DNA of 64,000 nt. Source: Stegostoma tigrinum. Taxonomy: Eukaryota. Positions 868 to 63,850 of this stretch are shown here, in pieces; positions within the stretch are counted from its first letter, which is position 1, and every line of letters starts with the position of its first letter. The stretch covers positions 24,800,001-24,864,000 of the forward strand of contig NC_081377.1 in NCBI RefSeq assembly GCF_030684315.1, in the 5' to 3' direction. Under the pieces are notes generated by a model. That model did not search any database. It had not been told where the DNA came from and worked only from the letters and a program-made list of their open reading frames with translations. The position numbers were made by a program, and so were the translations under genes.

Positions 868-999
868 AAACCAAAAGAACTGTGGATGCCGCTAATCAGA
901 AACAATAATAGAAGTTGTTGGAAAGGCTTAGCAGGTCTGGCAGCATCTGTGAAGAGAAATCAGAGTTAACATTTTCAGTTGAGAAACCCTTCTTCAGGA
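868..999 (-). mobile_element. Penelope-like pLTR fragment (family B) inserted in Gypsy gag
   Basis: Matches the repeat aaaaccaaaagaactg..gctcagcaggtctggcagcatctgtg..gttaac..cccttc.tcag also seen at 22.1, 35.1, 40.4 and 44.7 kb. Confidence 0.8.
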
Positions 1000-2108
1000 C
1001 TTGTTCATTCAGATTGGTGGAGGTTGCAAGGAAAGCCCATGGGACAGGCTGGGATTTGGAAGAATGAGTCTGAAAATGGAACGCTAGGAAAATAGCTCAA
1101 CCTAAATTTTAGCTTTATCAATAGCCAGGAAACAGGGGGTAAAGATTTCTAAGAGTGCAAGTGAAGTATTTGGGCTACATGATAGATATAAAGGGTTTTT
1201 ATCGAAAGGGAAAATAACTCCTTTTACTTCCAATGATGCTATTAAAACAATAACTATATTAAGGGACACTGGAGATACTGAGACTTATTTGCCAGAGAAA
1301 TATCTTGTTTTCCCTCCAGAGAGAATGAAAGCCAAAGTGTTAATAAATGGGTTAGGTGGACATTATGTTCCAGTTCCATCGTGCAAAGAAATTGGAGTGT
1401 GATTTATTATCTAGACCTGTCATAGTTGGAGTAGTTAAGAAATTGTTTGCGCACTGAGTGAACTTACACCTGGGTTATGGTTTGACTGGAACAAAGCTTC
1501 ATCCACAACCATGGAAAGCCAAAGGGAAGTTAAAAAGGTGGAACAGTTACTGCAAATACTTCCATGTATTTTTCCATCACCTGTCATGACCAGGGCAATC
1601 ATCTAAAAAGGCCCATCACCAGAGTTAAGTTAAAATTGCAAGCAATTATCAGAACAGCTGAAACTTCAATGAAAGGAAATATTTAGTATATCTACTTGAA
1701 TTGAAGGTCAGAAATCAAACCCAGAGTTATGTTAGTTGGCATTGACATCTTACTGAAACTGAGGCTGTAGGAGTTTTGGCATACTATTATATTCAGGCAA
1801 GAGTTCTGAAGAGGAAATGAAGACACCCTCACAGATCTGTGAATGCAAAATAACTTGTTGCTCTTTCGCCAGTGGTACTATCCAGATATTATAAAGAGTT
1901 ACTGCAAGTAGCACACAAAATTAAACATGTGGGAATAGGGAAAACACAAGTATCAATGTATAGGCATTTTACATGACAACGCTTCATAAGGGCACTGTGC
2001 AATTCTATTAAGTGTCTCATACAAGTTTGGTATTATGAGAGATTCAATGTGTAATCAAACTGGTACCTTTGACACCAATCTCAATTTTTGAAGACATATT
2101 CTTTGGAA

Positions 2109-2424
2109 TAGATTAGATGCCCCACAGTGTGGAAACAGGCCCTTCAGTCCAACAAGTCCAAACTGCCCCTTGAAGCATCCCACCCAAACCCATCCAACTA
2201 TAACTCACACACCCCTGAACACTACGGGCAATTTAACATGGCCAATCCACCTAACCTGCACATCTTTGGACTGTGGGAGGAAACCGGAGCACCCAGATGA
2301 AAACCACGCAGCCGCGGGGAGAATGTGCAAACTCCGCACAGACAGTAGCCCGAGGCTGGAATCGAACGCAGGTCCCTGGTGCTGTGAGGCTGCAGTGCTA
2401 ACCACTGAGCTACCATGCCACCCC
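2109..2424 (-). mobile_element. HE1-type tRNA-derived SINE inserted in the Gypsy integrase
   Basis: The minus strand begins ggggtggcatggtagctcagtggttagcactgc (A box), has a gttcgattcc B box, and ends in a CR1-like tail gggcctgtttccacactgt...tctaatcta. Confidence 0.9.
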
Positions 2425-3879
2425 AAGTTTTAATAAATTATGCAGGACCATGAACCAAAACTAAAGCAGGACATCAGTATATCCTTACAATTACAGATAT
2501 GACAGCCTAATTTATAGAAACTATCCCCTTAATGACAATTAAACCTAGATAGTGGTGGAAAGGTTGACTCAATTTAAAGTATATTAATTGAACTCCAATC
2601 TGTTCAAGGTTCTAATTTTATGTCAAAATTTTTGCAAGGCCTGGCTAGCAATGTGGGTATAAAACAGTTGAAGTCTATCATCGACCATCCACAAACACAG
2701 AGAGCTTTGAGTCGATATCATCAAACTCTCAAAACAATAATGGTTATAGTCTACTATCATGAATACTCACAGGGAATTAGACAAAGAATTAGATTTCTTA
2801 CTATTTGCTACCAGAGATTTCTCCTATGATTCTATTAGGATCAGTCCATTTGAACTGATCTATAGCCATGAAGTAAGAGGTCAATCAAAAATGATTAAGT
2901 CCTTCTGTAAAAAAGGAAACCTGTGTTTGGTTACATGTCCTTGTTGCCATAGAGACTGGCAGGCACATGGAAGGTCAGACATAGGAGCATTAGAAACTTC
3001 ATAAGCAAAATGAAAGAATGGGCAGGCAAGTGAGCTATGACTTGATCATTTCAGGAATGGGCCAAAGTATTGATATTATTGCCTTTACAAGGTTAGCTTC
3101 TGAAAGCAAAACTCATTAGGCCATTAGGAGGGTTACTAAAGTGACTCATGCAACAGATACTCCTGATTTCAGGAAGGAAATTAATCATGTTACCTGAACA
3201 TGTTGCAGTGATATCATCGCAAGGAAGAAGATGAGAAAAAGTAAGTGTGTCAAGAGTTCGGAAGGATGGCAGAGTTCTGGTGGATGATACAGGCAGCAAG
3301 AGTGAGGTGGAAAAAGTAGGAGACAATTCACAAAGTGAACCTCCTACCATTTGATGAGCCAATGTGGAAATACTAAGACAATTTGACACTGCTTTCTCAT
3401 ATTTTGGGGAAGGACAGTGAGAAGGTCTAATAGGGTTCCTTAAATATAAAGAAATCTGAGGTTAAACTCCTGGGCATACAATGTTATCAATGTAGGAGAC
3501 TCAGTTCTGATAAAACAAAACCCTTATCTGTTAATATCAGGCAAACAAGCTCAGGTGGAGATTTAAATGCAAGATGGAAAATGATTTGACTGAATCTAGC
3601 TAAAACAGCTAGAATTAACACTTGTAGTGAATTCCAAGTTGGATAAGTGGTACCATTTGAATTTTAAGACCAGCTACATTCCAAAGATGTACGAGTCAGC
3701 CATAGCTAAGGTCCTAATTGTGTAGTTTATTTCAAGGATAATGATCATATACAGTAAGACTTGGAAAGAGAATCCAGGTCAATTGTAGGACCCGTTTAAG
3801 AAACTGCAGTGGGCTGGTTTCATGTATATCTGGCCAAAAGTAAAATTACAAAAATCAAGAGTAAAGTGCTATAGCTAAG

Positions 3880-5788
3880 CCACAAAAAAAGGTATAAAGA
3901 AAAGAAAGATAGATTATGAGAGTAAACTAGCTAAGAAAAGACTACAAAAGTTTCTATAACTATGTAAATCGTAAAAGAGTTGCAAAGGTAAACATTGGTC
4001 CTTTAGAGGATGAGAAAGCCAATTAAATAACTGGTATTGAGGAAATAACCAAGACATTAAATAGTTATTTTGTGTCAGTCTTCACAGTGGAAGACACAGA
4101 TAACATGTTGAAAACTAATAGCAAGAAGGTTAGAGCAAGTGAGGACCTAGAAACGATTGTCATCACTAAGAAGGCAGTGCTGGGCAAGCTAATGGGACTA
4201 ACGGTAGACAAGTCTCTTGACCCTGATGAAATGCATCCCAGGGTATTAAAAGTGGTGATGGGGGAAATAGCAAATGCACTCGTAATTATTTCCTAAGATT
4301 CACTGGATTTTGGGGTGGTTCCCACAGACTGAAAAACAGCCAATGTGACACCACTGTTTAAAAAAGGAAGTAGACAAACAGCAGGTAACTATAGGCCAGT
4401 TAGTTTAACTTCAGTACTGGGGAAAATGCTTGAATCTGTCATTAGGGAAGAAATAGCAAGACATCTGGATGTAAATTGTCCCATTGGGAATACCCAGCAT
4501 GGGTTGACAAAGGATAGGTCATGTTTAACTAATTTGGTGGAATTCTTTGAGTACATTACTTGCATGGTGGACAATGGGGAACTTGTGGATATGGTGTATC
4601 TGGATTTCCAGAAGGCATTTGACAAGGTGCCACACCAAAGGCTGCCCCATAAGATAAAGTTATGGATATTGCCGGTAATGAATTGGCATGGATAGAGGAT
4701 TGGTTGACCAGTAGAAAGCAAAGAGTAAGGGTAAATGGGTGTTTTTCTAGTTGGCGGTCAGTGGCTCGTGGTGTGCCTCAGGGATCAGTGTTGAGACCGC
4801 AATTGTTTACAATTTACATCGATGATTTGGAGTTGGGGACCAAGTGTGGTACGTCAAAACTTGCGGGTGACACTAAGGTGAGTGGTAAAGCAAAGTGTGC
4901 AGAAGACGCTGAAAGTCTACAGAGGAATGTAGGTAGTCTAAGAGAGTGGACAAAGGTCTGGCAGATGGAGTACAATGTTGATAAGTGTGAGGTCATCCAT
5001 TTTAGTAGGAACAACAGCAAAATAGCCTATGTTTTAAATGATAAAAAATTGCAGCACGCTGCTATGCAAAGGGACTTGGGTGTCCTTGTGCATGAATCGC
5101 TAAAACTAGGATTGTAAGTGCAGCAGGTAATTAAAAAGGCAAATGGAATTTTGTCTGCCATTGCTAGAGGGATGGAGTTTAAAAACAGGGAGGCTATGCT
5201 GCAGCTGTATAGGGTCCTGGTGAGGCCACACCTGGAGTATTGGGTGCAGTTTTGGTCTCCTTACGTGAGAAGAGATATACTAGCACTGGAGGGGGTGCAG
5301 AGGAGATTCACTCAATTGATTCCAGTGTTGAGAGGGTTGGATTATGAGGACAGACTGCATAGACTGGGCTTATACTCATTGGAATTCAGAAGAATGAGGG
5401 GAGATTTTATAGAAACATATATGATTATGAAGGGAATAGATAAAGTGGAGGCAGGGAGGTTGTTTCCACTAGCAGGTGAAACTAGGACTAGAGAGCATTG
5501 CCTCAAAATAAAGGGAAGCAGATGTAGGACTGAGGTCAGGAGGAGCTTCTTCACCCAGAGGGTTGTGAATCTCGGAATTCCCTGCCCAGTGAAGTGTTTG
5601 AAGCTACCTCACTGAATGTTTGTCAGGCAAGGCTAGATCAATTTTTGAACAGTAAAGGAATTAAGGGTTATGGTGAGCGGGCAGGTAAGTGGAGCTGAGT
5701 CTGAAAGCTCAGCCAAGATCTTATTAAATGACAGGGCAGGTTCGGAGGGCCAGATGGCCTACTCCCACTCCTAGTTCTTAACTTCTTA
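3880..5788 (+). mobile_element. 5'-truncated CR1 LINE (ORF2 RT pseudogene) inserted in the Gypsy RT
   Basis: ORFs 4072-5615 carry [49 protein letters not shown]; CR1 3' UTR ends ..ctagttcttaacttctta. Confidence 0.95.
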
Positions 5789-15677: not shown

Positions 15678-16430
15678 TAGAACATTGAACATAGAACAGT
15701 ACAGCACAGTACAGGCCCTTTGGCCCATGATATGCCGATCTGTTATCCTGCTCAGATCAAACTACCCCGCATGCCCCTAATTTCATGATCATCCATGTGC
15801 ATATCCAAGAAACACTGGAATGCACCTGAAGTATCTGACTCAACTATCACTACCAGCAGCGCACTCCATGCACCCACCACTCTGTGAAAAGAACCTACCT
15901 CTGACATCTCCCCTAAACTTCCTCCAGTCACCCTAAAATTATGCCCCCTCATAATAGTCATTTCCACCCTGAGAAAAAGTCTCTGGCTATCCACTCTGTC
16001 TATGCCTCTCATCATATTGTAAGCCTCTATCAAGTCACCTCTCATTCCTCTTCGTTCCAGTGAGAAAAACCCTAGCTCCTTCAACCTTTCCTTATAAGAT
16101 CTGCCCTCCAGCCCAGGCAGCATCCTGGTAAATCTCCTCTGCACCCTCTCTAAAGCTTCAACATCCCTCCTATATTGAGGTGACCAAAACTGAACACAAT
16201 ATACCAAGTGTGGTCTAACCAGGGCTTTATATTGCAGCATAACCTCATGGCTCTTAAATTCAATTTCACCGTATGCCTTCTTTACAACCCCATCAACTTG
16301 GGTGGCAACTTTGACAGATCTCTGGATATGGACCCCAAGATCCCTCTGTTCTTCCCCACTGCCAAGAATGCTGCCATTAACCCTGTATTCTGCATTCAAA
16401 TTCGACATTCCAAATGAATCACTTCACGCT
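15678..16430 (-). mobile_element. CR1 LINE 3' fragment
   Basis: ORF 15752-16408 (-): QYKALVRPHLVYCVQFWSP..RRGMRGDLIEAY; tail on the minus strand. Confidence 0.93.
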
Positions 16431-16933: not shown

Positions 16934-17027
16934 GGGACAATAAAGTGAGCAGCTGGATGAACACAGCTGGCCAGGCAGCATAGAAGAGCAGGAAAGCTGA
17001 CATTTCAAGTCTAGACCCTTCTTCAGA
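16934..17027 (-). mobile_element. Short Penelope pLTR (family A) insert with TSD
   Basis: Flanked by aaacctgaactt at 16922-16933 and 17028-17039; sits inside a decayed CR1. Confidence 0.8.
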
Positions 17028-22125: not shown

Positions 22126-22455
22126 GCAAAACCAAAATAGAAAACTGTGGATGCCACAGATCAGAAACAAAAACAAAAATAAACAAAAGAACTGCAAATG
22201 CTGTAAATCAGGAACAAAAACAAAAGTTGCCGGAAAAGCTCAGCACGTCTAGCAGCATCTGTGAAAGAGAAAGCAGAGTTAATGTTTCGGGACTGGGGGT
22301 GACTTCTGAGGAAGGGTCACCAGATCTGAAACAAAAACAAAAAATGCTGAAAAAGCTCAGCAGCCTTACAATCGACCTGAAATGTTAACTCTGATTTTTT
22401 TCCACAGATGCTGCCAGATCTGCTGAGCATTTCCAGCAGTTTCTGTTTTTGTTTG
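22126..22455. mobile_element. Penelope family B inverted pLTR pair with a second pLTR nested inside
   Basis: Outer duplication tgaaatat (22114, 22456); inner insert 22180-22327 flanked by gaaacaaaaacaaaaa (22164-22179, 22328-22343). Confidence 0.8.
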
Positions 22456-23729: not shown

Positions 23730-23953
23730 GAGATAATGGGAACTGCAGATGCTGGAGATTCCAAGATAATAAAATGTGAGGCTGGATGAACACAGCAGGC
23801 CAAGCAGCATCTCAGGAGCACAAAAGCTGACGTTTCGGGCCTAGACCCTTCATCAGAGAGCTGATGAAGGGTCTAGGCCCAAAACGTCAGCTTTTGTGCT
23901 CCTGAGATGCTGCTTGGCCTGCTGTGTTCATCCAGCCTCACATTTTATTATCT
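23730..23953. mobile_element. Penelope family A asymmetric inverted pLTR insert
   Basis: 95-bp arms at 23762-23856 and 23861-23955 (1 mismatch), 4-nt spacer, 13-bp TSD tgcatccttaaca (23717-23729, 23954-23966). Confidence 0.93.
23826..23860 (-). ncRNA. Minimal type I hammerhead ribozyme motif
   Basis: Minus strand: cucu CUGAUGA A GGGU-CUAG-GCCC GAAA C GUC agc. Confidence 0.75.
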
Positions 23954-24099: not shown

Positions 24100-24950
24100 A
24101 CTCAGGCAGGTAAGAATAAGCAGCCCTCTGTTCATAAGAGTTGAGGAACAAAACAATGGGCAACACACACTGCATCTTGACTCTTTTCAACTGGTTGTGA
24201 GCTGGTTTCTTCCTGGAATGAGAGAAAGGCGGGTATTGCAGGAAATGAAGGTGGGTAGCACAGCTTTTACTGTTGTTGCAGGTTGCCGGGGGGCCCTGAC
24301 TGAGTGAATAGACAATGTCGAGGGTATGCAGTGTTAGTAGTGTCATGGATAACACAGTGTGGAGCTGAAGGAACACAACAGGTCAGGCAGCATCAGAAAA
24401 ACAGGAAAGTTGATGTTTCAGGTCGGGACCCCATTTCTGAAGAAGGGTCCCAACCTGAAACATCAGTTTTCCTGCTCCTCTAATGTTGCCTGGCCTGCTG
24501 TGTTCCACAGCTCCGCACTGTACTACCTATGACTCCAGCATCTGCAGCTCTTATTATCTCTAATAGTGTTGCAGGAGAGAGAGAGAGAGGGAAGGAGGGA
24601 GGGAGGGAAGATGTTGCAGGCTGTGTATAAGAGTGCAAGAATGCGGGAGTATGAGTCATGGTAGGAGGTGATTACAGTTACAGCAATCAAATGAGTGTGA
24701 AGTATCAGAGAGAAAATGGTGGCACTCACCCTGGTCAAGTGTAGATGATCATTGACATTCTTCTAACAATGTTGTGCATTCCTCCTAACAGCTGAGAGTG
24801 TTTTAACTGGGTGGCAAACTTGGGCCAGGTTGGCATGGTCCAGAGGGATGAAGAAGTCCCACATTGGCACCACCTCATACAACAGAATCTCCCTGACCTT
24901 GCCTAAAAAGTGGGGCAATGGTTTCCTCCATATTCCACATCTGGGCAAAT
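24100..24950 (-). pseudogene. Harbinger-type Myb/SANT-like DNA-binding protein pseudogene, two exons
   Basis: Exon 1 ends LSAVRRNAQHC*KNVNDHLHLTR|GTGAGT (boundary 24730); acceptor ttctctcattccAG at 24213; exon 2 KPAHNQLKRVKMQCVLPIVLFLNSYEQRA. Resembles the recalled motifs R+xxQCRKKxNDL and K.AHNRRE..KTGGG...LT.YEERA. Confidence 0.6.
24348..24560. mobile_element. Older Penelope inverted pLTR insert (CUGAAGA variant)
   Basis: Inverted arms around ~24430; plus strand ctgaagaagggtcccaacctgaaacatc; ~32-nt extra tail on the right arm. Confidence 0.8.
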
Positions 24951-26328: not shown

Positions 26329-26636
26329 ATCATAGAATCCCTACAGTGTGGAAGCGGACTATTTGGCCTGTTAAGTCCACACAGGCACTCTGATGAGAAG
26401 CCACCCACTATCCTATCCCTGTAACCCTGCATTTCCCATAGCTAAGACACACACCCTTAGACAGTATGAGCAATTCAGCATGGCATCTACCTAACTTGTA
26501 CGTCTTTGGACTAAGAGGAAGCAAACCCTTGCAGACACGGGGAGAATGTGCAATAACCAACAGTTGCCTGAGGGTGGATTTGAACCCTGATCACTAGCAC
26601 TGTGAGGCAGCAGTACTAACCACTGAGCCACCATGC
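26329..26636 (-). mobile_element. HE1-type SINE
   Basis: atcatagaatccctacagtgtgg tail; tRNA head gcatggtggctcagtggttagtactgctgcctcacag on the minus strand. Confidence 0.85.
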
Positions 26637-27794: not shown

Positions 27795-27964
27795 CAATGG
27801 GCACTGAGGATGCTGGAGAATCCAAGATAACAAAGTGTGGAGCTGGATGAACACAGCAGGCCCAGCAGCATCTCAGGAGCACAAAAGCTGACGTTTCGGG
27901 CTTAGACCCTTCATCAGAGAGCCTCTCTGTGAGCCTGCTGTGTTCATCCAGCTACACACTTTGT
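27795..27964. mobile_element. Penelope family A pLTR with partial inverted arm
   Basis: 17-bp duplication tatcaatgtcttagaca (27778-27794, 27965-27981). Confidence 0.9.
27887..27921 (-). ncRNA. Minimal type I hammerhead ribozyme motif
   Basis: Minus strand: cucu CUGAUGA A GGG-UCUAAG-CCC GAAA C GUC agc. Confidence 0.72.
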
Positions 27965-32370: not shown

Positions 32371-32700
32371 CCCCCCGCAAAAAATGGAAATCAACAATAA
32401 TTACTCAGTTGTGCAAGACCACATACCCCGTCATGTGTACTCTGAACAAATTCAGAATGAAATGCTAAACATTTGTCAATTCCATCTCTGTGAGATGCAC
32501 CTACAGATGATAAGCAAGTGTTCTTTTGAGAAACTTGGTCACATAAAATTCCGTCTGTTATAACAAAAATATGTTGCAGAAGAACCTGTAGGACTGTGGA
32601 CCTCTAATAAAAGTTATTTACAATATGTAGGGCAGAATTGTATGTTCCCGAGCTGGTGGCATTGCAGGCAAGTGAGGAGTCAGTAACCCGCTTCAGGTGG

Positions 32701-32930
32701 CCTTCCCATCAGGTTCCCACCTGTCTCAACATCCCCACAGGTCCTTCACACCAGGTTCCCACCTGCTTCGACATCCCCACAGGTCCTTCCCACCAGGTTC
32801 CCACCTGTCTTGACATCCCCACAGGTCCTTCCCACCAGGTTCCTACCTCCCTCGACATCCCCACAGGTCCTTTCCACCAGGTTCCCACCTGTCTCGACAT
32901 CCCCAAAGGTCCTTCCCACCAGGTTTCCAC
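32701..32930. repeat. 42-bp minisatellite, ~5.5 copies
   Basis: Unit ccttcccaccaggttcccacctgtctcgacatccccacaggt at 32701, 32743, 32785, 32827, 32869 and 32911 (partial). Confidence 0.95.
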
Positions 32931-35060: not shown

Positions 35061-35276
35061 CAAAAACAAAGTTGCTGGAAAAGCTCAGCAGGTCTGGCAG
35101 CATCTGTGGAGGAGAAAAAAAATTAATGTTTCGGGTCCGGTGACCCTTCCTCAGAACCCTCACCGGACATGAAACATTAACTCTTTTCTCTCCTCCACAG
35201 ATGCCAGACCTGCTGAGCTTTTCCAGGAACTTTGTTTTTGTTCCTGATTTACAGCATCCGCAGTTCTTTTGGTTCT
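35061..35276. mobile_element. Penelope family B asymmetric inverted pLTR insert
   Basis: 15-bp TSD taatttcattt(t/c)aca (35046-35060, 35277-35291); arms fold back at ~35158; ~35-nt extra tail on the right. Confidence 0.9.
35121..35158 (-). ncRNA. Minimal type I hammerhead ribozyme motif (family B)
   Basis: Minus strand: gguu CUGAGGA A GGGUC-ACCG-GACCC GAAA C AUU aau; perfect 5-bp stem II. Confidence 0.72.
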
Positions 35277-40049: not shown

Positions 40050-40650
40050 GGCTGAGGGGTGGGCAGTCTTTGCAGTGGGAAGAATAGGAGAGAATGGATA
40101 AGCTGGAACTTTTTTCACTGGAGCATAGGAGGTTGAGGCATGACCCTGTAGAGGTTTAGAAAATCATAAGGGGCACAGGTAAGGTGAATAGCTAAAGTCT
40201 TTTCCCTAGGGTGGGGGAGTTCAAAACTAGATGGCATAATTTTAAGGTGAGGAGAGAAAGATTTGAAAGGGACCTGGGAGGCAAAATTTTCACCCAAAGA
40301 ATGGTCCAAATGTGGTGTAAACTGCCAGACGAAGTGGTAGATACAGGTATAGTTACAACATTTGGACAGGCCCACAAATAGGAAAGATTTATAGGGAACT
40401 AAATAAAAACCGAAAGAACTGCAGATGCCGTAAATCAGAAACAAAAACAAAGTTGCTGGAAAAGCTCAGCAGGTCTGGCAGCATCTGCGAAGGAGAAAAC
40501 AGAGTTAACGTTTCAGCTCCAGTGACCCCTCCTCAGAAGATTTAGAGGGATATGGGCCCACTGCAGGCAAATGGGACTAATTTAGTTTGGAAAACTTGGT
40601 TACATGGATGACTTGGACCAAAGGGCCTGTTTCTGTGCTGTATGACTCAG
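40050..40650 (+). mobile_element. CR1 3' fragment containing a family B pLTR insert (40398-40536)
   Basis: CR1 sequence continues across the insert; 14-bp TSD aagattta(t/g)aggga (40384-40397, 40537-40550). Confidence 0.88.
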
Positions 40651-42040: not shown

Positions 42041-42854
42041 TGAGATTGGAGCTTCCTGGACCAATTTCACCCCTGCATCTATATTCTGTAAGCCTCTCAT
42101 CAAATCTACTAAATGAACTTTAGTCAAAATAAGAGCCAATTTCTGTTTTCATGTAGCTCATTGGCAGCTATTTGTTTTGAACTGGGTCATGTTCATTTCC
42201 TGTAACCATTGCCTCTTTTTTGCCTTAATAGCTGGTTTTATTTGGATGCTTTTCTTCTCTGAATCTAATTTAATTCTTGCTGAGGAACTTCTGTCTTTTG
42301 TAGCAAACCAACTTGCCATCAACTAGGTTTATCCCCACTAGTTTTATTGGATCTTCTGTTCCTAGATTCCGGTATGATGGGTTCTTCCGAAAGAATTTTC
42401 CTCCCATTGTCATCAAGGTCTATGGGTCTCAACTTACCATTTGTTCAATGTCTACAAGTACATTTATGAAACTCTCTCTTCACATTTCCACCTTTGAAGT
42501 CTATTTGTAAGTTCCAACCTCACAATGCCATTGTTAAAATTAAAGTTTATAACATGAGACTCATCATCTTTTTAACTCAATCTCTGGCAACATCTCAAAA
42601 TTGTGGAACTGCTTACTTCATTTCAACCTATGTTCTTTCAGAGTTTATAATTAAAATAACCAACTCCCCAATTCCTGATGTATTTGAGACATTTTTTTCC
42701 CTTCTTACTGGTGTTCTTCACCGAGATTTGGCCAATCATCAATGCTGTTTTAAAAAAATTGCATTATTGTGTGAATTTTCTGAAGGTAAGTACAACTTTT
42801 CATCATTAGAAGAATCAGCTAGTGATCAAGTTGCATTCACTAATTTTTTTGTGT

Positions 42855-44652
42855 AGATAGCTATTTAAGGAATAAAAGAATGACGAAAGTAAGATTAGGC
42901 CCAATCATGGATAGTAGTGGTAAGTTGTGTGTGGAGTCAGATGAGATAGGGGAAGTGCTAAATGAATATTTTTCAACAGTATTCACTCTAGAAAACGACA
43001 ATGTTGTCAAGGGGAACACTGAGAAACAGGCTACTAGACTAGGTGGGATTGAGGTTCACAAGGAAGAGGTATTAGAAATCCTTCAGAGGGTGAAGATAGA
43101 TAAGTCCCCTGGGCTGGATGGGATTTATCCTCGGATCCTCTGGGAAGCCAGGGAGGAGATTGCCGAGCCTTTGGCATTGACCTTTAACTCATCATTGTCT
43201 ACAGGAATAGTGCCAAATGACTGGAGGATAGCAAATGTGGTTCCCCTGTTCAAGAAGGGGAGTAGAGTCAACCCTGGTAATTATAGACCAATGAGCCTTA
43301 CCTCAGTTGTTGGTAAAGTGTTGGAAAAGGTTATAAGGGATAGGATTTATAATCATCTAGAAAAGAATAAATTGATTAGGGATAGTCAGCATGGTTTTGT
43401 GAAGGGAAGGTCGTGCCTCACAAACCTTATTCAGGTCTTTGAGAAGGTGACCAAACAGGTAGATGAGAGTAAACCGGTTGATGTGGTGTATATGGATTTC
43501 AGCAAGGCGTTCGATAAGGTTCCCCACAGTAGGCTAATGTACAAAATGCGGAGGAATGGGATTGTGGGAGATATAGCAATTTGGATCGGAAATTGGCTTG
43601 CTGAAAGAAGGCAGAGGGTGGTAGTTGATGGGAAACGTTCATCCTGGAGACCAGTTACTAGTGGTGTACTGCAAGGGTCGGTGTTGGGTCCACTGCTGTT
43701 TGTCATTTTTATAAGTGACCTGGATGAGGGCGTAGAAGGATGGGTTAGTAAATTTGCAGACGACACTAAGGTCGGTGGAGTTGTGGATAGTGATGAAGGA
43801 TGCTGTAGGTTGCAGAGAGACATAGATAAGCTGCCGAGCTGGCCTGAGAGGTGGCAAATGGAGTTTAATGCGGACAAGTGTGAGGTGATGCACTTTGGTA
43901 GGAGTAACCGGAAGGCAAAGTACTGGGCTAATGGTAAGATTCTTGATAGTGTAGATGAGCAGAGAGATCTCGGTGTGCATGTACACAGATCCTTGAAAGT
44001 TGCCACCCAGGTTGACAGGGCTGTTAAGAAGGCATAACGTGTTTAAGTTTTTATTAATAGTGGGATCGAGTTTCGGAACCAAGAGGTTATAGTGAAGCTG
44101 TACAAAACTCTGGTGCGGCCGCACTTGGAGTATTGTGTACAGTTCTGGTCACCGCATTATAAGAAGGATATGGAAGCTTTGGAAAGGGTGCAGAGGAGAT
44201 TTACTAGGATGTGGCCTGGTAAGGAGGGAAGGTCTTATGAGGAAAGGCTGAGGGACTTGAGGCAGTTTCATTAGAGAGAAGAAGGTTGAGCGGTGACTTA
44301 ATTGAAACATATAAATAATCAGAGGGTTAGATAGGGTGGATAGGGAGAGCCTTTTTCCTAGGATGGTGACGGCGAGCACGAGGGGGCATAGCTTTAAATT
44401 GCAGCGTGAAAGATATAGGACAGATGTCAGAGGTAGTTTCTTTACTCAGAGTAGTAAGGGAACGGAACGCTTTGCCTGCAACGGTAGTAGATTCGCCAAC
44501 TTTAGGTACATTTAAGTCGTCATTGGACAAGCATATGGACGTACATGGAATAGTGTAGGTTAGATGGGCTTGAGATCGGTATGACAGGTCGGCACAACAT
44601 CGAGGGCCGAAGGGCCTGTACTGTGCTGTAATGTTCTATGTTCTATGCTCTA
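42855..44652 (+). mobile_element. Young 5'-truncated CR1 LINE with a 385-aa open RT segment
   Basis: ORF 42880-44037: NYRPMSLTSVVGKVLEK, YMDFSKAFDKVPH, GVLQGSVLGPLLF, SKFADDT; premature TAA; 3' tail (atgttct)n. Confidence 0.97.
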
Positions 44653-44691: not shown

Positions 44692-44810
44692 CAAAAACAA
44701 AATTGCTGGAAAAGCTCAGCAGGTCTGGTAGAAACTGTGAAGGAATAAACAGAGTTAACGTTTTGGGTCCGGTGACCCCTCCTCAGAAGAGCATCTGCAG
44801 TTCTTTTATT
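44692..44810 (-). mobile_element. Family B pLTR insert within a short tRNA-SINE remnant (44655-44875)
   Basis: 12-bp TSD tgtt(a/g)tgatgca (44680-44691, 44811-44822). Confidence 0.85.
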
Positions 44811-48311: not shown

Positions 48312-48875
48312 CTTTATTCATTCATGGGAGGTGAGTACCAATGGCTAGGCCAGCATTTGTTGTCCATCCTGAAATTTCCTGGGGGCAGTTAAGAGTTAAT
48401 TGTGATGCTGTGGGTTTGGAGTCACATGTAGACCAGACCAGGTAAGGAAAGCAGTTTCATTCCCTCATGGAACTGGATAGGTTTTTAAGATAATCAACAA
48501 TGGTTTCATGGTCATCATTAGACCCTGGATTCCAGATTTATTTTATTGAATTCAAATCCCACTAACTACCATGGAGGGTTTTGAACCCAGGACCCCAGAA
48601 TATTAACACAGTATAGCGCTGGATGAACACAGCTGGCCAGGCAGCATCAGAGGAGCAGGAATGCTGACATTTTGGGTTGGGAAGCTTCTTCAGAAATAGC
48701 CCATTTCACTTCAAGGGTCCTGACCCGAAAAGTCAGCTTTCCTCCTCCTCTGATGCTGCCTGCCCTGCTGTGTTCCTCTAGCTCCACACTGTGTTATCTC
48801 TGACTCCAACATTGGCAGTTCTTACTATCTCCCCAGAATGCTACCTGGGCCTCTGGATTAATAGTCAGCAATAGT
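48312..48875 (-). mobile_element. tRNA-derived SINE of a second family, carrying a Penelope inverted pLTR insert (48602-48830)
   Basis: B box gggttcaaaaccc and tail aaatgctggcctagcc..cccatgaatgaataaa on the minus strand; insert TSD ccccagaat (48593-48601, 48831-48839). Confidence 0.82.
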
Positions 48876-50870: not shown

Positions 50871-51443
50871 TAACACATCTGTAAAGTGCTCAGACTCTTT
50901 GTTCTGCTAAAGGAAATGGATAAATAAATGAAAGCCATGCTGGTTCACAAAAGAGGCTCTCACTGACTTAATCTGCATGTAATTCTGATCATTCTGCATG
51001 TTCTTTTTTTAGTGCTGGTATTTCACATAGAAAAAATGGTAATGTCACTCAAAGATAGTTTCATCCATAACAGAACAAAATGCATGACAGGAAAAAAATA
51101 TCATTAGAAAGATTGTGAACCACAACTGGAATCATCATCCTATTAAGGAGTAAAATGGTTGGACTTACAGCACTCAACTTGTTGCATCTATGGCAAAAGG
51201 AGACATAGATCCTGTCTCATGGTTTACTGAGCAGACTGTCAGAATTATTTGGCAGAGTGCCGCAAGATTAGAACTTGCATTTTTTAATTTCAAAATATAT
51301 TTTATTCATTAAAAAATCTTCATACATATGCATAGTCATAAACGCTCTGTACAGTGGCATATCGAGGAAACAAGTATTAGAGTTTATCTCTATCCAAACA
51401 AACTACAGGCATCTCTTACTTGAAACACATTATATTTATTTTG

Positions 51444-51753
51444 TTAGATTAGATTCCCTACAGTATGGAAACAGGCCCTTCGGCCCAACAAGTCCAGACT
51501 GCCCCTTGAAGCATCCCACCCAGACCCAGCCCCCCATAACCCACACGCCCCTAAACACTACGGGCAACTTAGCATGGCCGATCCACCCAGCCCGCACATC
51601 TTTGGACTGTGGGAGGAAACCAGAGCACCCTGAGGAAACCCATGCAGACATGGGGAAAGTGTGCAAACTCTGCAGTTGCCCAAGGCTGGAATCGAAACCA
51701 GGTCCCTGGCGCTGTGAGGCTGCAGTGCTAACCACTGAGCCACCGTGCCGCCC
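51444..51753 (-). mobile_element. HE1-type SINE, young, same subfamily as 2109-2424
   Basis: Intact A and B boxes; (tctaa)n tail. Sits inside a possible LINE 3' UTR (51278-51840) ending aataaa..poly(A) on the minus strand. Confidence 0.92.
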
Positions 51754-52544
51754 TAAATGCATTTTAGGCATGAGGATGATCCAAAACTGAACAGAACACC
51801 TTTTAACTTCTGCAGGAAGACCTCCCATCGCCAGAACGTACAAACAATCACCAAAATGTAGCTCGGCAGATGGTGAGCAAGACCTTCACATCAGATCTTT
51901 CCTAAGTGCCCAGTGAATCACCTCTTCCACACAATGTCCTCAAAGAACTATGGATGTAGATGAGATCCTGAGGTCCTTCTTACTAAGAGTCTTCAGCCAT
52001 GACACTCCTTTATTTACATATTGTTATGGCTGAGGTTAGAGGAGTGTACATATTTTCCAGTCGCCCTATTCCACATGTGACAACATACAACAGAAATTAG
52101 TTTCCACCGTTACCATAACATCTAATGAAATACCTAATCTATGATAAGTGTTATATAAAAGATCTATCATGCAGACTTCTTTAATAAGCTCAGAAGCAAT
52201 TTTGATTCCTGATCTAAGGATACCTTGTAGAACCTATGTTAGCATCCAGTTTTGTGTAAAACTTGTTTGTTACCAATTTCGTCCAACTATAGCCAACAGA
52301 TGAAATGGGATGGATTTCCATTTGTCTAAGTCACCATCATGACATGCATGAATTTCATTATACCACAGGAGGTGACAAAATCTAAATTGGGAAACAATTA
52401 TCACGTGAGCTACACTTTATGTAAAAGCATAGTTGTTATTCATGGCAATGTAACAACCAAGTCAGCAGAATGGGCACATGTTCACCTTCTTTTGAAGCCT
52501 GGTTTGCACCAAAGTAAGAAGATTTTACATACATTAGACTAAAA

Positions 52545-54900
52545 GGCCATTAGATATAGGAATAGAATTAGGGCATTCAGCCAATCAAGTTAGGTCCATC
52601 ATCCAATCATGGCTGACATGTTTCTTGACTCAATTTTCCTGCCTTCTCCCTAGTCCCCTTACTAATTCAAGAACCAATCTATGTATGTCTTAAATACATG
52701 CAATGATTTAGCCTCCACACCCTTCTTGGTCAATGGGTTCCTCTGGCTGAAGAAATTCTTCCTCCTCTTAGTTCTAAAGGGTCATCCCTTCACTCTGACT
52801 CTGTTCCCATTCACGCAACATGTTCAAGTTCTTCTACAGTCCCCTACTTCCTCAACACTGCCTGTCTCTCCAGTGGTCAGTTCTGGTCACCTCATTATAG
52901 GGAGGAAGTGGAAGCTTTAGAGAGGGTGCAAAGGAGATTTACCAGGATGCTGCCTGGACTGGAGGGCAGGTCTTATGAGGATAGGTTGAGGGAGCCATGG
53001 CTTTTCTCATTGGAGCGAAGAAGAATGAGAGGTGACTTGATAGTGGTGTATAAGATGATGAGAGGCATAGATAGAGTGGATAGCCAGGGACTTTTTTCCC
53101 CAGGGCGGACATGACTATTATGAGGGGCATAATTTTAAGGTTATTGGAGGAAGGTATAGGGGAGATGTCAGAGGTAGGTTCTTTACACGAGTGGTGAGTG
53201 CGTGGAAGGCACTGCCAGCGGTGGTAGTGGAGTCCGGTACTTTAGGGATTTTCAAGCGACTCTTGGATAGGCACATGGCTGATTGTAAAATGTAATGTAT
53301 ACAGAGTAGTTTGATTTTAAAGTAGCTTAATAGATCAGCAAAACACCATGGGCTGAAGGGCCTGTACTATGCTGAACTGTTCTTTGTTCTATGCTGTATC
53401 TTTATATCATGTGCAAACTTAGCAACAATGCCCTCAGTTCCTTAGTCCAGATCTTTAAAATATGACATGAATTGTGTGGTCCCAATACTGATCCCTGTGG
53501 AACACTGCTAGGAGCCTGCTGCCATCCTGGAAAAGTTCCCTTTATTCTCTACGCTCTGTCTTCTGCCAGTCAGTCAATACCTTTCCCCTAAAACCATGAG
53601 CTCATATTTTATTTAGCAGCATCCTGCGCAGTATCTCTGGAAATCCAAATAGATCAAGTCCACTGGGTCTCCTTTGTCTAATTTGCTCATTATCTCCTCA
53701 AAGAATTCTAACAGATTTGTCAGGCAAGACCTCCCCTTGATGAAGCCATGCTGACTGTCTGTTTTACCATGCACTTCCAAGTGGTCAGCAATCTCATCCT
53801 TAATAATTTTACCAATCACTGAGGTCAGAGTAATCTGTCCCCGGGACCTTCCTTGACTCTAATAATTCCTGAAAGATCACCATCAATGCATCTACAATCA
53901 CCTCAGCTATCACCTTCAAAATTCTGGGTGGAGTCCATCTGGTCCGAATGACTTTAAAACTTTCAGATTCCCCAGCATTTCTTCCTAAGTGATGGCCAAT
54001 ACACTCACATTCTGCCTTGAAGTTGAATTTCTTGAATTTCTGATATGTTGCTGATGTCTTTCATTGTTAAAACTGATGCATAGAACCTGTTCAGCTTCTC
54101 TGCTAGTTTTATTGTTTCCCATTGCTACTTCTCCAGCTTCATTTTCCAGTGGTCCAATGTCCACTCTTGTCTCTCTCTTACTTTTTGATATCTAAAAAAA
54201 AATTCTATTTTCTTTTGTATTAATTGCTAGCTTATATTTCATCTTCTACCTTGGTGTTTTTTTTTATTTGTCCTCAGCTGGGTTTTAAAGGCTTCCCAAT
54301 AATCTTCATCACATTGGCTTCTTTCCAAACTATGAGGATTCAATCAGCCCAAGTCAGTGCTGACCATTTGAAAAGCATCCCAACCAGCTGCAGGCCCCAA
54401 CCTTATCCCCATAATGTCACATTTGTATGCCATGGCTAACCGAAGCCTGGGTAGCCGTGGACACTATGGGACCATTTAGCATAGCCAATCCATCTAACCT
54501 GCACATCATTGGAATGTGAGAAGAAACCAGAGCACCTGGAGGAAACCCACGCCGACACGGGAAGAATGTGCAAACTCATTACAGACAATCGCTCAAGTTT
54601 AGAATCGAACCCGGTGCTGTAAGGCAGCAAGTGCTAACCACTGAGTCACAGTGCCGCCCTAACTGTATGTTTTTTTCTTTTGCTTTTATGCTTTCTCTGA
54701 CTTCCCTGATCAGCCATGGGTGCCTCATCCTCCCCTTAATATGCCTCTTCTACCTTCTACTGTGCCACCAGAATTATCCCCAGGAAATGCTGCTGTTGCT
54801 GATGCGCCATTTTCCCTGCCAGGCCTCGCTTTCAATCATTCTGGTTAGCTCCTGTCTCATGTCTTTGTAGTTATCTTTACTGTATTGTAAGACCAGTACA
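52545..54900 (-). mobile_element. Fragmented minus-strand CR1 interrupted by a plus-strand CR1 (52870-53392) and an HE1-type SINE (~54318-54659)
   Basis: Minus ORF 53613-53819 QHGFIKGRSCLTNLLEFFEE..YLDFQ; plus ORF 52908-53114 ALERVQRRFTRMLPGL; SINE core at 54470-54659. Confidence 0.85.
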
Positions 54901-55888: not shown

Positions 55889-56316
55889 TAATGTGGACTT
55901 CACAAATATCCCCTCCCCCTACCGAATCCCAAAACCAGTCCAGCTCTTCCCCGCTTCCCTAACCTGTCTGTCCTCCACCTATACCCTCCTCCCACCTCAA
56001 TCCCCACCCCTATCTCCTACCTACTAGCCTGATCTGCCCCCTTGACCTGTCCATCCTCCCTGGACTGACCTATCCCCTACCTAATTCACCACCTGCATTC
56101 ATCTTTATTGGCTACATCGCCGCCTCTTTGACCTGTCTGTCTCCTCCCCACCTATCTTCTCCTCTATCCATCTTCTATTCGCTTCTCCCGATTTATTTCA
56201 GAACCCCTTCCCCTCCCCCATTTCTGAAGAAGAGTCCAGACCCAAAACGTCAGCTGTCCTGGTCCTCTGATGCTGCTTGGCCTGCTGTGTTCATCCAGCT
56301 CTACACCTTGTTATCT
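55889..56316 (+). mobile_element. Penelope-like 3' end with pLTR
   Basis: Collinear with 59348-59790; ends ctgaagaagagtccagacccaaaacgtcagc..gttatct. Confidence 0.88.
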
Positions 56317-57904: not shown

Positions 57905-59825
57905 ATACCCAACCCTGCACCACCCGCTTCTATCTCCTTCCCAAAATCTACAAACCTGACTTCCCTGGTCGACCCATTGTCTCCGCCTGCTCCTGCCCCA
58001 CTGAACTCATCTCCACCTATCTGGACTCCATTTTCTCCCCCTTCGTCCAGGAACTCCCCTACCTACATCCGTGACACCACCCAGGCCCTCCACCTCCTCC
58101 ACAACTTCCAATTCCCCAGTCTCCAACACACATTTTCACCATGGACGCCCAATCCCCATGCAGATGGCTGAAAGGCCCTCCACTTCTTCCAGTCCCACAG
58201 GCCTGACCTGACCCCTTCCACCGACACCCTCATCCGCCTAGCCGAACTCGTCCTCACCCTCAACAAATTCTCTTTCAATTCCTCCCACTGCCTACAGACA
58301 AAGGGGGTGACCATTGGCACCCACATGAGCCCAAGCTATGCCTGTTTCTTTCAAGGTTACATGGAACAATCCCTCTTCCACACCTACACTGGCCCCAAAC
58401 CTCACTTCTTCCTCTGTTACATTGATGACTATATCAGCGCCACCTCGTGCTCCCATGAGGAGCTCGAACAATTCATCCACTTCACCAACGCCTTCCATCC
58501 CAACCTTAAGTTTCACCTGGACCATCTCTAATACCTCTCTCTCCTTCCTGGACTTCTCTGTCTCCATCTCTGGCAACCACCTAGAAACGAATATCCATTT
58601 CAAGCCCACCAACTCCCACAGCTACCTAAAATACACCTCCTCCATCCACCTTCCTGCAAAAATTCCATCCCCTATTCCCAATTCCTTCTGCTCCCAGGAT
58701 GAGGCATTCCACTCCCGTACGTCTCAGATGTCCTCATTTTTCAAGGACCACAACTTCGCCCCCTCAGTGGTCGAGAACGCCCTTGACTGTGTCTCCCGCA
58801 TTTCCCACAACTGATCCCTCAGTCCCTGTCCCCGCAATAACAACCAAAACAGAATCCCCCTAGCCCTCACATACCATCCCACCAACCTCCGGATACAACA
58901 CATCATCCTCCGACACTTCTGCCAACTACAATCCAACCTCATCACCCAAGACATTTTTCCATCCCCTCCCCTGTCTGCTTTCCGGAGAGACCACTCTCTC
59001 CATGACTCCCTTGTCCACTCCACACTGACCCGCCAGCCCCACCACACCCGGCACTTTACCCTGCAACCGCAGGAAGTGCTACACTTGTCCTCACACCTCC
59101 TTCCTCACTCCCATCCCAGACCCCAAGAAGGCTTTCCACTTCAAGCAGATGTTCACCTGCACATCTGCTAATGTGGTATACTGCATCCACTGTACCCGTT
59201 GTGGCCTCCTCTACATCAGGGAAACCAAGAGGAGGCTTGGGGACTGCTTTGCAGAACGGCCTCCTGCAGTGCCATAATGATGCCACCCGTAGGTTGCAGG
59301 GACAGCAACTCATATTCCACTTGGGAACTCTGCAGTCCAATGGTATTAATGTGGATTTCACCAGCATCAAAATCTCCCCTTCCCCCACCGCATCCCAAAA
59401 CCAGCCCAGTTCTTCCCCTCCCCCCACTGCATCCCAAAACCAGCCCAGCTCGTCCCCGCCTCCCTAACCTGTTCTTCCTCTCACCTGTCCCTTCCTCCCA
59501 CCTCAAGCCGCACCTCCATTTCCTACCTACTAATCTCATCCTGCCCCCTTGACCTGTGCGTCCTCCCCGGACTGATCTGTCCCCTCCCTACCTCCTCACC
59601 CCCATACTCACCTCTCCACCTATCTTCTCCTCTATCCATCTTCAGTCCGCCTCCCTCTCTCTCCCTATTTATTCGAGTTCCCTCTCCCCATCCCCCTCTC
59701 TGATGAAGGATCTAGGCCCGAAACATCAGCTTTTGTGCTCCTAAGATGCTGTTTGGCCTGCTGTGTTCATCCAGCTCCACACTTTATTATCTCAGATTCT
59801 CCAGCATCTGCAGTTCCTATTATCT
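57905..59825 (+). mobile_element. 5'-truncated Penelope-like retroelement (RT, Cys-rich linker, GIY-YIG), decayed
   Basis: RT motifs IGTHMSPSYAC..FLCYIDDY (ORF 58307-58531); linker PCNRRKCYTCPHT (~59060); endonuclease FTCTSANVVYCIHCTRCGLLYIRETKRRLGDCFAE (~59152-59256); terminal pLTR 59696-59825. Confidence 0.92.
59696..59730 (+). ncRNA. Hammerhead motif in the terminal pLTR of the Penelope element (slightly decayed)
   Basis: cucu CUGAUGA A GGAUCUAGGCCC GAAA C AUC agc, in sense with the RT. Confidence 0.65.
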
Positions 59826-61469
59826 CAAGGCTGATGATACGTTGCTGAAAACAGCATCAGCATCTTGTAGAAATGAAACAGCCAGAGGAAAACATTCTGA
59901 TCTGAGGGATGTAGCCAAGTCAACAGACTGAAGGACAGGGAAGAGGAAACCTCACTTTGGCATCCTATATGAATACTTTGGAAAAGACAGAAAGGAAAAG
60001 GAAAATAATTAGTATTTCTAAAATGATGATTTCCAAACAAGCCAATATAATTCAGAGCTAATTTGTGAATTTTGGAGTGTAGACAGGACTGTGATATAGG
60101 AATTGTTATTACCACTATGGAGGAAATAGGTGAGCAAAGTGAAAAACTGGAGTGTACCACCTTGGTGAGATGAGAAAGGAAAGATACTTTCACCCAGGAT
60201 GAACTGTATTGTCCAGATTGCTTTCCACAAGCCTCATCAGAACATGAAGGAATGTTGACTATGCATCCAAAGCTCCAAACTCAGAGGAAACTATACTGTA
60301 TAAAATCTGTTTTCAGTAAGTCATGGCATTGAGGATAATATAAGCAATTGTAAAAACCACTTGATGAAAGATATGACTGTTGGAAGGTCTGATTCACTCT
60401 TCAGCATTTTACAATGTACATGTACAGACCAAATAGAACTTCTTAACAAGGCTTTGTGTTACAAAGGCTTTTGAACAGACTTTCTCAAGTTTACTCATCA
60501 GCTACAAACTGCTGGAAATATATGGTTTCATCTCAGTTTTCATTGTTGCACTAATGCTGGAACATAATCCACTAAATGCTGATGGCTTGAGTTAATTCCG
60601 GTGGATGCTAATACTATAAAGTTCTGCAGTTTGCTGTAACAGAGTTAATAGTCATTATAAATGGGATTTTCTGGTTATTAGAAGTGAGGATTGATTATAA
60701 TTAACTTTGTCTTAGAATTGATTGAATTCCAAAAGCTCCAATAAATGTCAGAAGGGACAAGAGACAATACCAGTTATAATCAGAAGTTAAATGCGTTATA
60801 TTTTATGATAAAGCTGTTCCTTTATTTTCATGTGATTATTTTAAGCATTGTCTTTTCTTGTGAAACCTCTTTGTTTTTATTGCAGGAAAGTAAAACAAAT
60901 AAAAAGTAGGAATATTACAAGCATACAGAAAGCTACACAAATAAACTCATCTATTGGAGGGAAAACTAGTAAGTTAAAAGATGTGTATGAAAATATGAAC
61001 CCACAGCAAAGTTAGCCAATTGCTGTTTATCCACGTCCACTGCGAATAAAAAGCCCACTTAAAAGATAAAAGCTGGCGATGCCATCCGAGTATCTGTGTG
61101 ATAAAACTGCATTGGGACAATTAGTCAAAGATGGAGGATCATTAAAGCCTTAATTGAAAAGAGGCAAATATCTGCACTTGTTGTAAATAGGTAAACGTTA
61201 CTAAGCCCCATAATTGCTAACAGGACCTTATGTGCAGCCTGCACTGATTGGATTATTTGCAAATGTCGATTTCAATGGATGGAAAGGCAGGAGTGATACA
61301 TCCGTAATGATCCACCCTGTACCGACTGCATGCCAGATCCTACTTTGGAGATAGTAGACAGGAGCAAGACATGGGGGCAAAGGGGCCTTATAATGTTTAT
61401 CTTGCAGGCTGAAGCTTCAATTTCAAAATTGCTTACTGCTCCTGTTCCAAGAGGCAGACAAAAGAAATG

Positions 61470-61600
61470 CAGAAAGCAGGAGTAGGTGTAGGCTATTCAG
61501 CCCTTCCAATCTGGTCTGCCATTCAATATAATTATGGCTGATGCTCTACCTAAAACCAATATTCCCACTTTCTCTCCATGCTCTCTGACCCTTTTAATAT
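61470..61600 (-). mobile_element. CR1 3' tail
   Basis: ggagtagg..ctattcagccc..gccattcaatataattatggctgat. Confidence 0.65.
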
Positions 61601-63719
61601 CAAAAAGCAATAGGACAGAAATAGTGATCAAAAAGTGTGATGACAGAAATCTAAAACAAGAAAGAGCATCTCAAAATCAGAAGCACTTAGTCAACATCTA
61701 AATATAAAAGTAGCTTAATATTTAACATGGAATCTTTCATTAAAAGCATCTTGGCGAATGTTATATTCAATAACAAAACAGTTATTTTGGCTGTTCCCAT
61801 TATCAACCTGTGTATTTTCCAGTTGTTTTAAATGAAGTTAGATCATCTCTCTTGAATGTGCATTTTCCCTGTTCCCTTTTATTTCCTTTACTGTTTGAAA
61901 CCATTTATTCAGAATTGTGGATCTACTGAAGCAGCAAGGCTCCCATATGCTATCCACACAAAATTTGCAATGCAGTAATATAATTCATATCAAGCAACCT
62001 CATGTAAATCCAGCCGCATCCTAATGTGACATGTGTTTTCCAGCAGCAGTCACAGAATAGCTCTTATTCTTCTTTCACCTACAAGCCATCTGTAACATTT
62101 CTGGTCCATTACCTCAGTACATGTAAGGCATTCAACCTATAACATTCCTGAATACATGATATGGTTCTCCTCAATAATCTGAAGGGCTTTTAAACCTGCA
62201 GTTTCTGTTGCTCTCCATGAAAATGAATGCAGTCTTGGACTAAGTTGCATCATTTCAGGCTTCCGGTTACTGTTCGAGAACTCACCAAATTCCTCCATGT
62301 TTCACGAGGGGAATGTTTCTAATAACCTGAACTGATTTTGATGACATCAGTAATATTTGCAAACTCTGCTCTCCAAATACCTGATGCAAAGTGTATCGAT
62401 TTAAGCCCACAACACAATTCTAAATGCAAAAGGGATTTTTCACAGAAATATTTCCATTGATCATTGGTATTCCTGACACATTCCACAACCATCTTCAACC
62501 CAGTTCCACCTGTTTGTGCTTTTAGTCTTGTTTTACACTTCACCAGCTCTGAGATATTGCTGGAGACATCATTCATGGTTAATGTAGAAAGGAAGAGACA
62601 GGGAAAGGGAAAGGAACAATGCTTTATAGAAAACTATGTTGGGGTTGCTCAACATTAACCTATGACAGGATACCTTGAACAAATAATTTCTTAAGATTCT
62701 GGTCCTTAACAAAGTGATAGCAAATAGTCGTGTCTATAGACAATAAAGAGTTAAGGGGAAATGACTGTGCACTGACCTACATCTGATAACCACTCTCTTG
62801 CAAAGACCTTTTTCTCAATGCCCACCTCAGTGTAGAAAGATTCCCTTTGTTTTTTACTGCATCGTGTAACTGTAAAAACTTTTTAAAGGTCACGTTGACA
62901 CGGGAAGGGCTTGATTGCAATTTCTTTTTTCTCTTAACTGCGTTATTAAATGTCCAGAATTAGGTTACTCTGACCAGATTGTCCCGGCTTTAATCTTTGA
63001 CTGGCATCAAAAAAGCAATCGCGCTCAGGAAATCACAACGTTCAGTTAACCAGTTCTTGAGTGTCAGCGGTTTCTTCAACATCCTGTTTCACAGATTTAT
63101 TTCTCTATTACAGAAAAACAACAAGCTCGTTGCTTATTTATTAACAATTTTAACCCTTCCAGCACCAGGTCCCCTCTGGGTAATATTCCCATGTCAGCAC
63201 TATTCATTACACATTGGTGCTGGAGGTGGATTTACGAAGTTACTTATTTGTGAGGAGTTTTAACATTTCCAAATCTTTCAACATTTTATGATACTTTTTT
63301 TTACCCCGGAAGGTACAAAGCACAACCAGAACAAAGGTACAAGAGAATCTGTAGCACTTGTTTGGCCAAAAGACACACTCAAAAGACCACATGTCCCAGG
63401 CTGACTCCCCCTGGCCTGACTTACAGGCCCAGATCAAAGCTCTAGGTCCGTAGCGAGGCCCGGGCACTTGAAAGAGGGGTAGTGGCTGTCTCAGCCTGCC
63501 GTGGTGGTTTTGTCCTGGGTTGGAGGTCTCGTCCCATGTGGAGGTCTTATTCATGTTCAAGTTCCAAGTATTCCAATGGCCCAGCTGGCAGTTTCATCCA
63601 AGAGTGGCAGTCTCAGCCTGCCATAGCAGTCTTCAGCAGAGGCTTCCAGCCCAGTATTCCAGCCACCTGGTGCAGTGGTGTTGTCCCAGCCTGGTGGCCT
63701 CATCCCAGCTGAATCTTCA

Positions 63720-63850
63720 GGGTTAATGGGAACTGCAGATGCTGGAGAATCCAAGATAGCAAAGTGTGGAGCTGGATAAACACAGCAGGCCAAGCAGCAT
63801 CTCAGGAGCACAAAAGCTGACGTTTCAGGCCTAGACCCTTCATCAGAGAG
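63720..63850 (-). mobile_element. Solo family A pLTR with hammerhead motif (63816-63850), inside an unclassified GC-rich repeat (~63300-64000)
   Basis: Full pLTR plus tail; flanking atcttca duplication (63713-63719, 63852-63858); minus strand CUGAUGA A GGGUCUAGGCCU GAAA CGUC. Confidence 0.88.

Follow-up and report, generated by a model that had tools for sequence, protein, structure and literature searches.

Short pLTR inserts in Stegostoma tigrinum are probable dead-end copies of a Neptune-type Penelope-like element, and their shared 5' end likely marks a capped RNA start

The DNA analyzed here (the window) is a 64,000-nt stretch of contig NC_081377.1 of Stegostoma tigrinum, an organism with a 3.2-Gb genome. 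Positions 57908..59826 (plus strand) hold a 5'-truncated, frameshifted Penelope-like element (PLE) of Neptune type, which retains remnants of the reverse transcriptase (RT, with YIDD motif), a Cys linker, a GIY-YIG endonuclease (EN) remnant, a 3' untranslated region (UTR) and a pseudo-long terminal repeat (pLTR). Within this pLTR lies a minimal hammerhead ribozyme core (59700..59727, plus strand), with cleavage predicted after 59727. Elsewhere in the window are short pLTR inserts, eight of which an earlier note had described as ending or folding back at the reverse complement of the core motif CUGANGA. We number the element's sense strand from the C of CUGANGA (+1; the preceding base is -1), so that the predicted cleavage falls after +28. 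The modal 5' end of the short inserts, or stubs, is at -4..-1 (59696..59699, plus strand), in the 5' arm of hammerhead helix I; this shared end likely marks the start of a capped RNA rather than a ribozyme cut.

Following the pLTR downstream led to a full copy of the parent element (L327), which consists of a pLTR, an intact open reading frame (ORF) of 1,076 amino acids and a second pLTR 3,621 nt later; the PLE unit is 3.6 kb long. The ORF has Pfam matches to RVT_1 (residues 575-702) and GIY-YIG (936-976), both under the curated cut-off. Its translation has a CX2-5CxxC linker between RT and EN, and two Cys between GIY and YIG. Such a linker is typical of Neptune and Nematis PLEs (PMC8557442). 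L327 thus has the single ORF with RT and C-terminal GIY-YIG that defines endonuclease-bearing (EN+) PLEs, and the partial-tandem pLTR, the inverted copy, the optional tail and the target-site duplication (TSD) agree with the structure of that class. Judged by this predicted protein the parent is an EN+ PLE of Neptune/Nematis type; that it is Neptune rather than Nematis is suggested by the vertebrate distribution in 10.64898/2026.07.22.740005. The main ATG of L327 lies 166 nt below the hammerhead core. A 27-codon upstream ORF crosses the pLTR in both the window copy (59747-59826) and L327, and ends just past the tail, leaving 39 nt up to the main ATG.

The core contains the CUGANGA, GAAA and UH elements, with stem II and a palindromic stem III. 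It is conserved over 16 aligned copies, with 86% of stem II cells paired. There are at least two pLTR families, A (with young and older subfamilies) and B, and helix I has 2 bp in family A and up to 4 bp in family B, against the 4-5 bp of the type I criterion. Covariation is above slid controls and not above shuffles (41/500). An Rfam scan gave no match to a hammerhead model and only hairpin-like chance matches on inverted inserts, and RNAalifold did not recover the hammerhead fold. The motif is described here as a predicted minimal type I hammerhead.

All eight junctions of the earlier note were found in place. Young family A contributes two head-to-head inserts and one solo copy. The insert at 23730..23953 has a minus arm (23730-23860, covering -4..+127), a plus arm (23861-23953, +1..+93) and a 13-bp TSD (23717-23729/23954-23966, p=0.0013). 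That at 27795..27964 has both arms complete to -4 around a central base (27922) that is G on the long arm's sense strand; its TSD (27778-27794/27965-27981, p=0.0013) is 17 bp, 13 bp as scored by script. The solo pLTR at 63724..63851 (minus strand, -4..+126) has an extra base at 63851, a sense-strand G, between the element and a 7-bp TSD (63713-63719/63852-63858, p=0.024). An older family-A solo pLTR with the short 3' end lies at 16938..17027 (minus strand), and its 16-bp TSD (16922-16937/17028-17043, p=0.0013) overlaps its 5' edge. The family-B inserts are an old solo pLTR at 868..999 (minus strand), whose 5' end is near the core and for which no TSD was found; a head-to-head insert at 35061..35276 (15-bp TSD, 35046-35060/35277-35291, p=0.0013); a solo pLTR with tail at 40398..40536 (minus strand; 14-bp TSD, 40384-40397/40537-40550, p=0.0013); and an insert at 44692..44810, in which a short-end arm reaching the core is joined to a 21-nt inverted tail arm (12-bp TSD, 44680-44691/44811-44822, p=0.003).

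Two older family-A head-to-head inserts had been missed, and in each of them one arm ends at the same boundary. One, at 24343..24562, has a plus arm that begins a few nt before the core at 24437 and a weak 6-bp TSD (p=0.06); the other, at 48602..48830, has a 9-bp TSD (48593-48601/48831-48839, p=0.004). The boundary is crossed by an older family-A copy at 55889..56316 (plus strand), which extends about 300 nt upstream of the core at 56224, and also by the 57908-59826 copy. Inserts at 41156-41450 (without TSD) and 22190-22450 are multiply rearranged, with at least three pieces of pLTR, which fits repeated template switching.

When scored against 1,500 random flank pairs, the TSDs of seven of the eight inserts were above chance (p 0.0013-0.024), bearing out the claim that most have their own duplication of 7-17 bp. 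A contig from a related-species run (X5) joins 27777 directly to 27965, that is, it lacks the 27795 insert and has one copy of the TSD. For both the 23730 and the 27795 insert, contigs from a same-species run (X3) span the outer junctions without any difference; together with the empty site they rule out an assembly collapse. The inserts (90-229 bp) are therefore real, separate insertions, as had been proposed, and are 5'-truncated pLTR copies of the Neptune-type PLE.

Do 5' ends cluster at this boundary more generally? A grid sample of 100 pre-set 10-kb stretches (1 Mb) gave 237 matches, 229 of them far enough from a stretch edge, and 220 family-A copies of at least 40 nt were scored. Of the 117 that reach -1, 59 end in -8..-1 (mode -4), 12 end in -88..-9 and 46 continue beyond; the upstream stop rate predicts only 2.8 ends in -8..-1. 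Breakpoints are thus far from uniform. The older family-A subfamily (ATTT) has the same boundary as the young family, and in family B (39 copies scored) 14 of 21 copies reaching -1 end in -6..-1. Copies whose cDNA came through the main body of the element differ: of 27 whose pLTR is followed by at least 60 nt of main body, the 12 that extend to -1 include none with a stop in -8..-1, as against 31 of 69 young copies (p=0.0025), although the 27 are partly non-independent and one copy from another selection (L220), scored at -9, may be such a stop.

The base next to the boundary is also distinctive. Exact genome-wide counts at -5 in young family A were 92,157 C (the templated base, mostly in collinear copies: 27 of the first 30), 8,100 G, 1,352 A and, by subtraction, 2,667 T. 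Many copies pass the boundary by this measure, with the templated C in 92,157 exact matches and another base in 12,119. The G:A ratio is thus 6.0, compared with a background base ratio of 0.72 in the grid sample; at the control positions -4 and -6 it was 49:51 and 28:25 (first 100 listed matches, by eye). For non-inverted inserts only, the ratio was 3.2 (95% 1.7-6.0) against the 0.72 of base composition, an estimate that drew on 14 of 60 G loci and 13 of 30 A loci. In family B, again by eye over the first 100, there were 50 G, 31 A and 19 T at -5 and 13 G, 40 A and 47 C at -6. An untemplated G at the fixed 5' end is hence present in young family A and in family B, and not in the older subfamily. 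Such a G has been taken as a copied cap in L1 and SVA (PMC4859970).

A TATA-like box, a putative promoter element, lies 30 nt above the modal 5' end (59666..59672, plus strand). Most long family-A copies have this motif at -33 to -35 relative to the core, as the sole AT island of a CT-rich tract, and family B has TATAAA at about -33. The base at -4 fits an initiator or TCT consensus. From the promoter geometry and the extra G we infer a capped transcription start at -4, so that one part of an explanation offered earlier, a pLTR transcription start, stands. At two loci (L245, L250) family-B inserts carry, just ahead of the boundary, a short duplicate of their own 5' terminus, which would fit renewed engagement of the RNA end by RT.

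The 3' ends are equally ordered. In family-A grid copies they cluster at about +93 and +125/127, and between them lies the 34-nt 'tail' (59792..59826, plus strand in the window copy), whose two limits are the putative RT start sites. Two internal RT start sites delimit the PLE tail in vitro (PMC11167929), and the two genomic ends match them. Fifty-three grid and window pairs were examined, and by strict classes every classified head-to-head pair combines a long with a short end (27/27, p=7e-9); so do 42 of 43 classifiable pairs out of 56 in pattern-selected loci. Most unclassified pairs have one end slightly outside the class limit, and under a looser two-class count, long plus short made up 62 of the 68 short pairs and 40 of the 47 long-spaced ones. 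That the tail is often at only one end is already in print as a qualitative pattern (PMC8557442). Solo copies use either end (60 long, 57 short).

At 481 loci both arms are complete to -4 around a single central base, which is G or C in 48 of the first 50. Of 68 short pairs, 49 have one 5-site haplotype in both arms (shuffle mean 13, maximum 23) and 7 have arms that differ at two or more diagnostic sites, as do 12 of 47 long pairs. These head-to-head forms are better accounted for by two separately primed cDNAs than by hairpin self-priming. Kilobase-scale copies (L281-L292) are also very often head-to-head, with the shared 3' region in both arms and the tail in one only. About half of the copies extending past the tail (L298-L326) jump to the 3' UTR after 74-277 nt of main body; these jumps near the ORF start suggest frequent template switching.

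We think it probable that the stubs are cDNAs that start at the two internal tail sites of an uncleaved RNA and run off its capped 5' end. On this hypothesis the upstream pLTR would contain an RNA polymerase II promoter, with its TATA-like box at -30 and its initiator on -4, that drives transcription of the element RNA; the predicted 5' end of this RNA is 4 nt ahead of the hammerhead core. RT would prime about 93 or 127 nt inside this capped, uncleaved RNA and then run off its 5' end, the extra G being the copied cap. The endonuclease would nick both target strands, each nick priming at one of the two sites; two cDNAs joined at their 3' ends would give the 'fold-back' forms and a single cDNA the solo forms. 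Since short copies start at the transcription start and lack the upstream promoter, they likely do not propagate. The inserts are thus likely dead-end pLTR copies of a Neptune-type Penelope-like retrotransposon.

Several observations weigh against run-off from a capped RNA. In the first place, both the start site and the cap are predictions from DNA sequence, and the unbiased local count of G covers 16 simple inserts. Most G loci are inverted junctions, where the partner arm's base could account for the G; the central base of the 481 loci complete in both arms could likewise be a single templated C at -5. Collinear copies in which C has changed to G make up 5 of 30 'BG' loci, and cap-independent terminal addition could also supply a G. 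In the older ATTT subfamily G is not in excess: the first 100 matches, by eye, gave 24 G, 56 A and 20 T at -5, and at -4, again over the first 100, G was about as frequent as C. In D. virilis the Penelope promoter is internal and TATA-less and an intron precedes the hammerhead (PMC2377424, PMC4209133), so the promoter geometry is not universal. Finally, a capped monomer RNA as sole template would predict -4 ends in main-body cDNAs as well, and none was seen in 12. Long products therefore need a template without an end at -4, which may be read-through multimers, seamless strand transfer, or cleaved and circularized RNA. Cleaved, circularized PLE RNA has been proposed (PMC4209133).

This last option leads to a possible, if tentative, alternative with two templates, in which capped uncleaved RNA primed in the 5' pLTR would yield only short, strong-stop-like stubs, and promoter-bearing long or tandem insertions would come, in the simplest case, from a circle. 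The circle would arise when dimeric hammerheads cut at the two pLTRs and the RNA is ligated, and would be copied in rolling-circle fashion from the same two start sites. The absence of stops at +29, the lack of main-body stops at -4 and the exact-period mini arrays described below fit this scheme. If it is true, the missing job of the hammerhead would be to turn a dead-end template into a productive one.

The other explanation in the earlier note invoked RT stalling, or a template switch, at the folded ribozyme. In its general form, a folded ribozyme or bound protein on a longer RNA stops RT, and the inverted forms arise by fold-back self-priming, as has been proposed for PLE palindromes (PMC3846280). 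In its favor, the boundary coincides with helix I's 5' arm, bases close to the cleavage site are the partners of +1..+6 in the predicted minimum-energy fold, and the two arms of an insert are usually identical. This single-strand fold is, however, no more stable than shuffles (z=+1.1). A stall is expected 3' of a hairpin, not past it, whereas the ends lie beyond the hairpin, on its 5' (far) side. Nor can fold-back produce the 481 loci with two arms complete to -4, and the pairs whose arms differ at two or more diagnostic sites and the use of both 3' ends by solo copies also oppose it. The absence of stops among the 12 main-body-crossing copies argues against an intrinsic stall. We therefore disfavor this explanation and regard it as unlikely.

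Could the 5' end instead be an uncapped processing end, left by a nuclease or otherwise, with the G a cap-independent terminal addition by RT? The older subfamily without G excess would be accommodated, and multi-base fillers are common at junctions. There is, however, no excess of G at -4, -6 or +28, and a processing end leaves unexplained why two diverged families have a TATA-like box 30 nt above it and an initiator-like motif on it. We accordingly give this origin little credence.

The earlier note had also suggested that the short RNA is a non-autonomous, ribozyme-bearing mini-retroelement. Such a SINE- or retrozyme-like unit (SINE, short interspersed nuclear element) would propagate from its own masters. 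It could draw on the sheer number of copies (189,433 exact matches to one family-A 21-mer, long and short together), on the derivation of retrozymes from pLTRs (10.64898/2026.07.22.740005) and on the presence of small tandem arrays in the genome. When 124 short and 99 long young copies were compared, however, 11 common variants had equal frequencies (all p>0.13) and none was private to short copies, which hence have no diagnostic lineage of their own. Short copies also lack the TATA-like box and are solo or head-to-head, not head-to-tail hammerhead units; the tandem arrays are structurally different and include main-body and upstream sequence. This part of the earlier suggestion is largely refuted, and independent propagation is very improbable.

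Hammerhead self-cleavage as the source of the boundary is scarcely credible. A minimal core is retained across families, but the predicted cut after +28 is 32 nt off the boundary, only 3 of 220 copies start at +29, with no peak at the cleavage site, and purines at +28 (4,322/189,433, or 2.3%, many of them at palindromic junctions) compare with 9.1% at -5. In vitro, too, uncleaved RNA was the main substrate (PMC11167929). These +28/+29 counts refute an origin by cleavage at the canonical site. A splice-acceptor origin was also rejected. There is an AG some 25 nt upstream in family A, yet the interval -24..-27 accounts for only 3 of 220 ends, and what lies past -4 is target DNA with no common exon.

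How does this compare with known systems? [quoted passage not shown] Their 30-40 bp tail is often at one end only, an asymmetry that is near-absolute here, and rotifer pLTRs have TATA- and initiator-like motifs. The available parts of these papers describe variable 5' truncation, and solo pLTRs as products of recombination or deletion, whereas here half of the core-reaching copies end at one G-marked site. Poseidon PAc of Anolis (PMC11167929) shares the two internal RT start sites delimiting the tail, the nicking and extension of both DNA strands, the uncleaved RNA substrate and a hammerhead near the coding start. It belongs to another clade, however, its ATG lies inside the hammerhead rather than 166 nt below, and it showed no strand-site asymmetry in vitro. 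Metazoan PLE hammerheads (PMC4209133) share the minimal core, the extra base before stem II and the palindromic stem III, and are mostly single dispersed motifs from truncated PLEs, with some close opposite-strand pairs.

In L1 twin priming, two primers yield an inverted insert; here, by contrast, both arms copy the same segment rather than adjacent ones. Full-length L1 and SVA insertions (PMC4859970) have a cap-derived G at the run-off end, as the G is read here, but 'full length' here is about 100-130 nt, with priming internal and near the 5' end. Non-LTR retrozymes form head-to-tail arrays (10.64898/2026.07.22.740005), unlike the solo or head-to-head inserts, whose end is not at the cleavage site. 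Contig C1 does contain exact-period head-to-tail arrays of internally deleted family-A units, with periods of 166, 293, 313, 329, 336 and 362 nt (examples, L315-L317: C1 140329155-140330181, 165409523-165411118, 104860940-104862777 and 49657924-49658678). The 362-nt unit (L315) holds the promoter region, hammerhead, tail and main-body start, and these arrays look like non-LTR retrozymes.

Other repeats in the window are RT fragments of long interspersed nuclear elements (4333-5615, 15752-16423, 42844-44037 and 52707-53114), which we take to be CR1-like; a very abundant, high-depth SINE-like repeat (about 26330-26637 and 51436-51885); and a 42-bp tandem repeat that is open for reading in both directions (32611-33009).

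The element class is already known and the stubs are a by-product of it, real and non-random. Neither a fixed, G-marked 5' end nor strict site pairing of PLE insertions was found in the literature searched, which covered few subscription papers. The junctions bear on the origin of tandem and inverted pLTRs in PLEs, on the strand and the form of the RNA that is copied, and on the role of the hammerhead. If the stubs are indeed run-off copies, the junctions would show that the in vivo template is sense, capped, uncleaved RNA; they would place promoter and start site at single-base resolution, and indicate that each target strand uses one of the two RT start sites. The way in which Penelope elements are copied would then be on record in thousands of genomic junctions.

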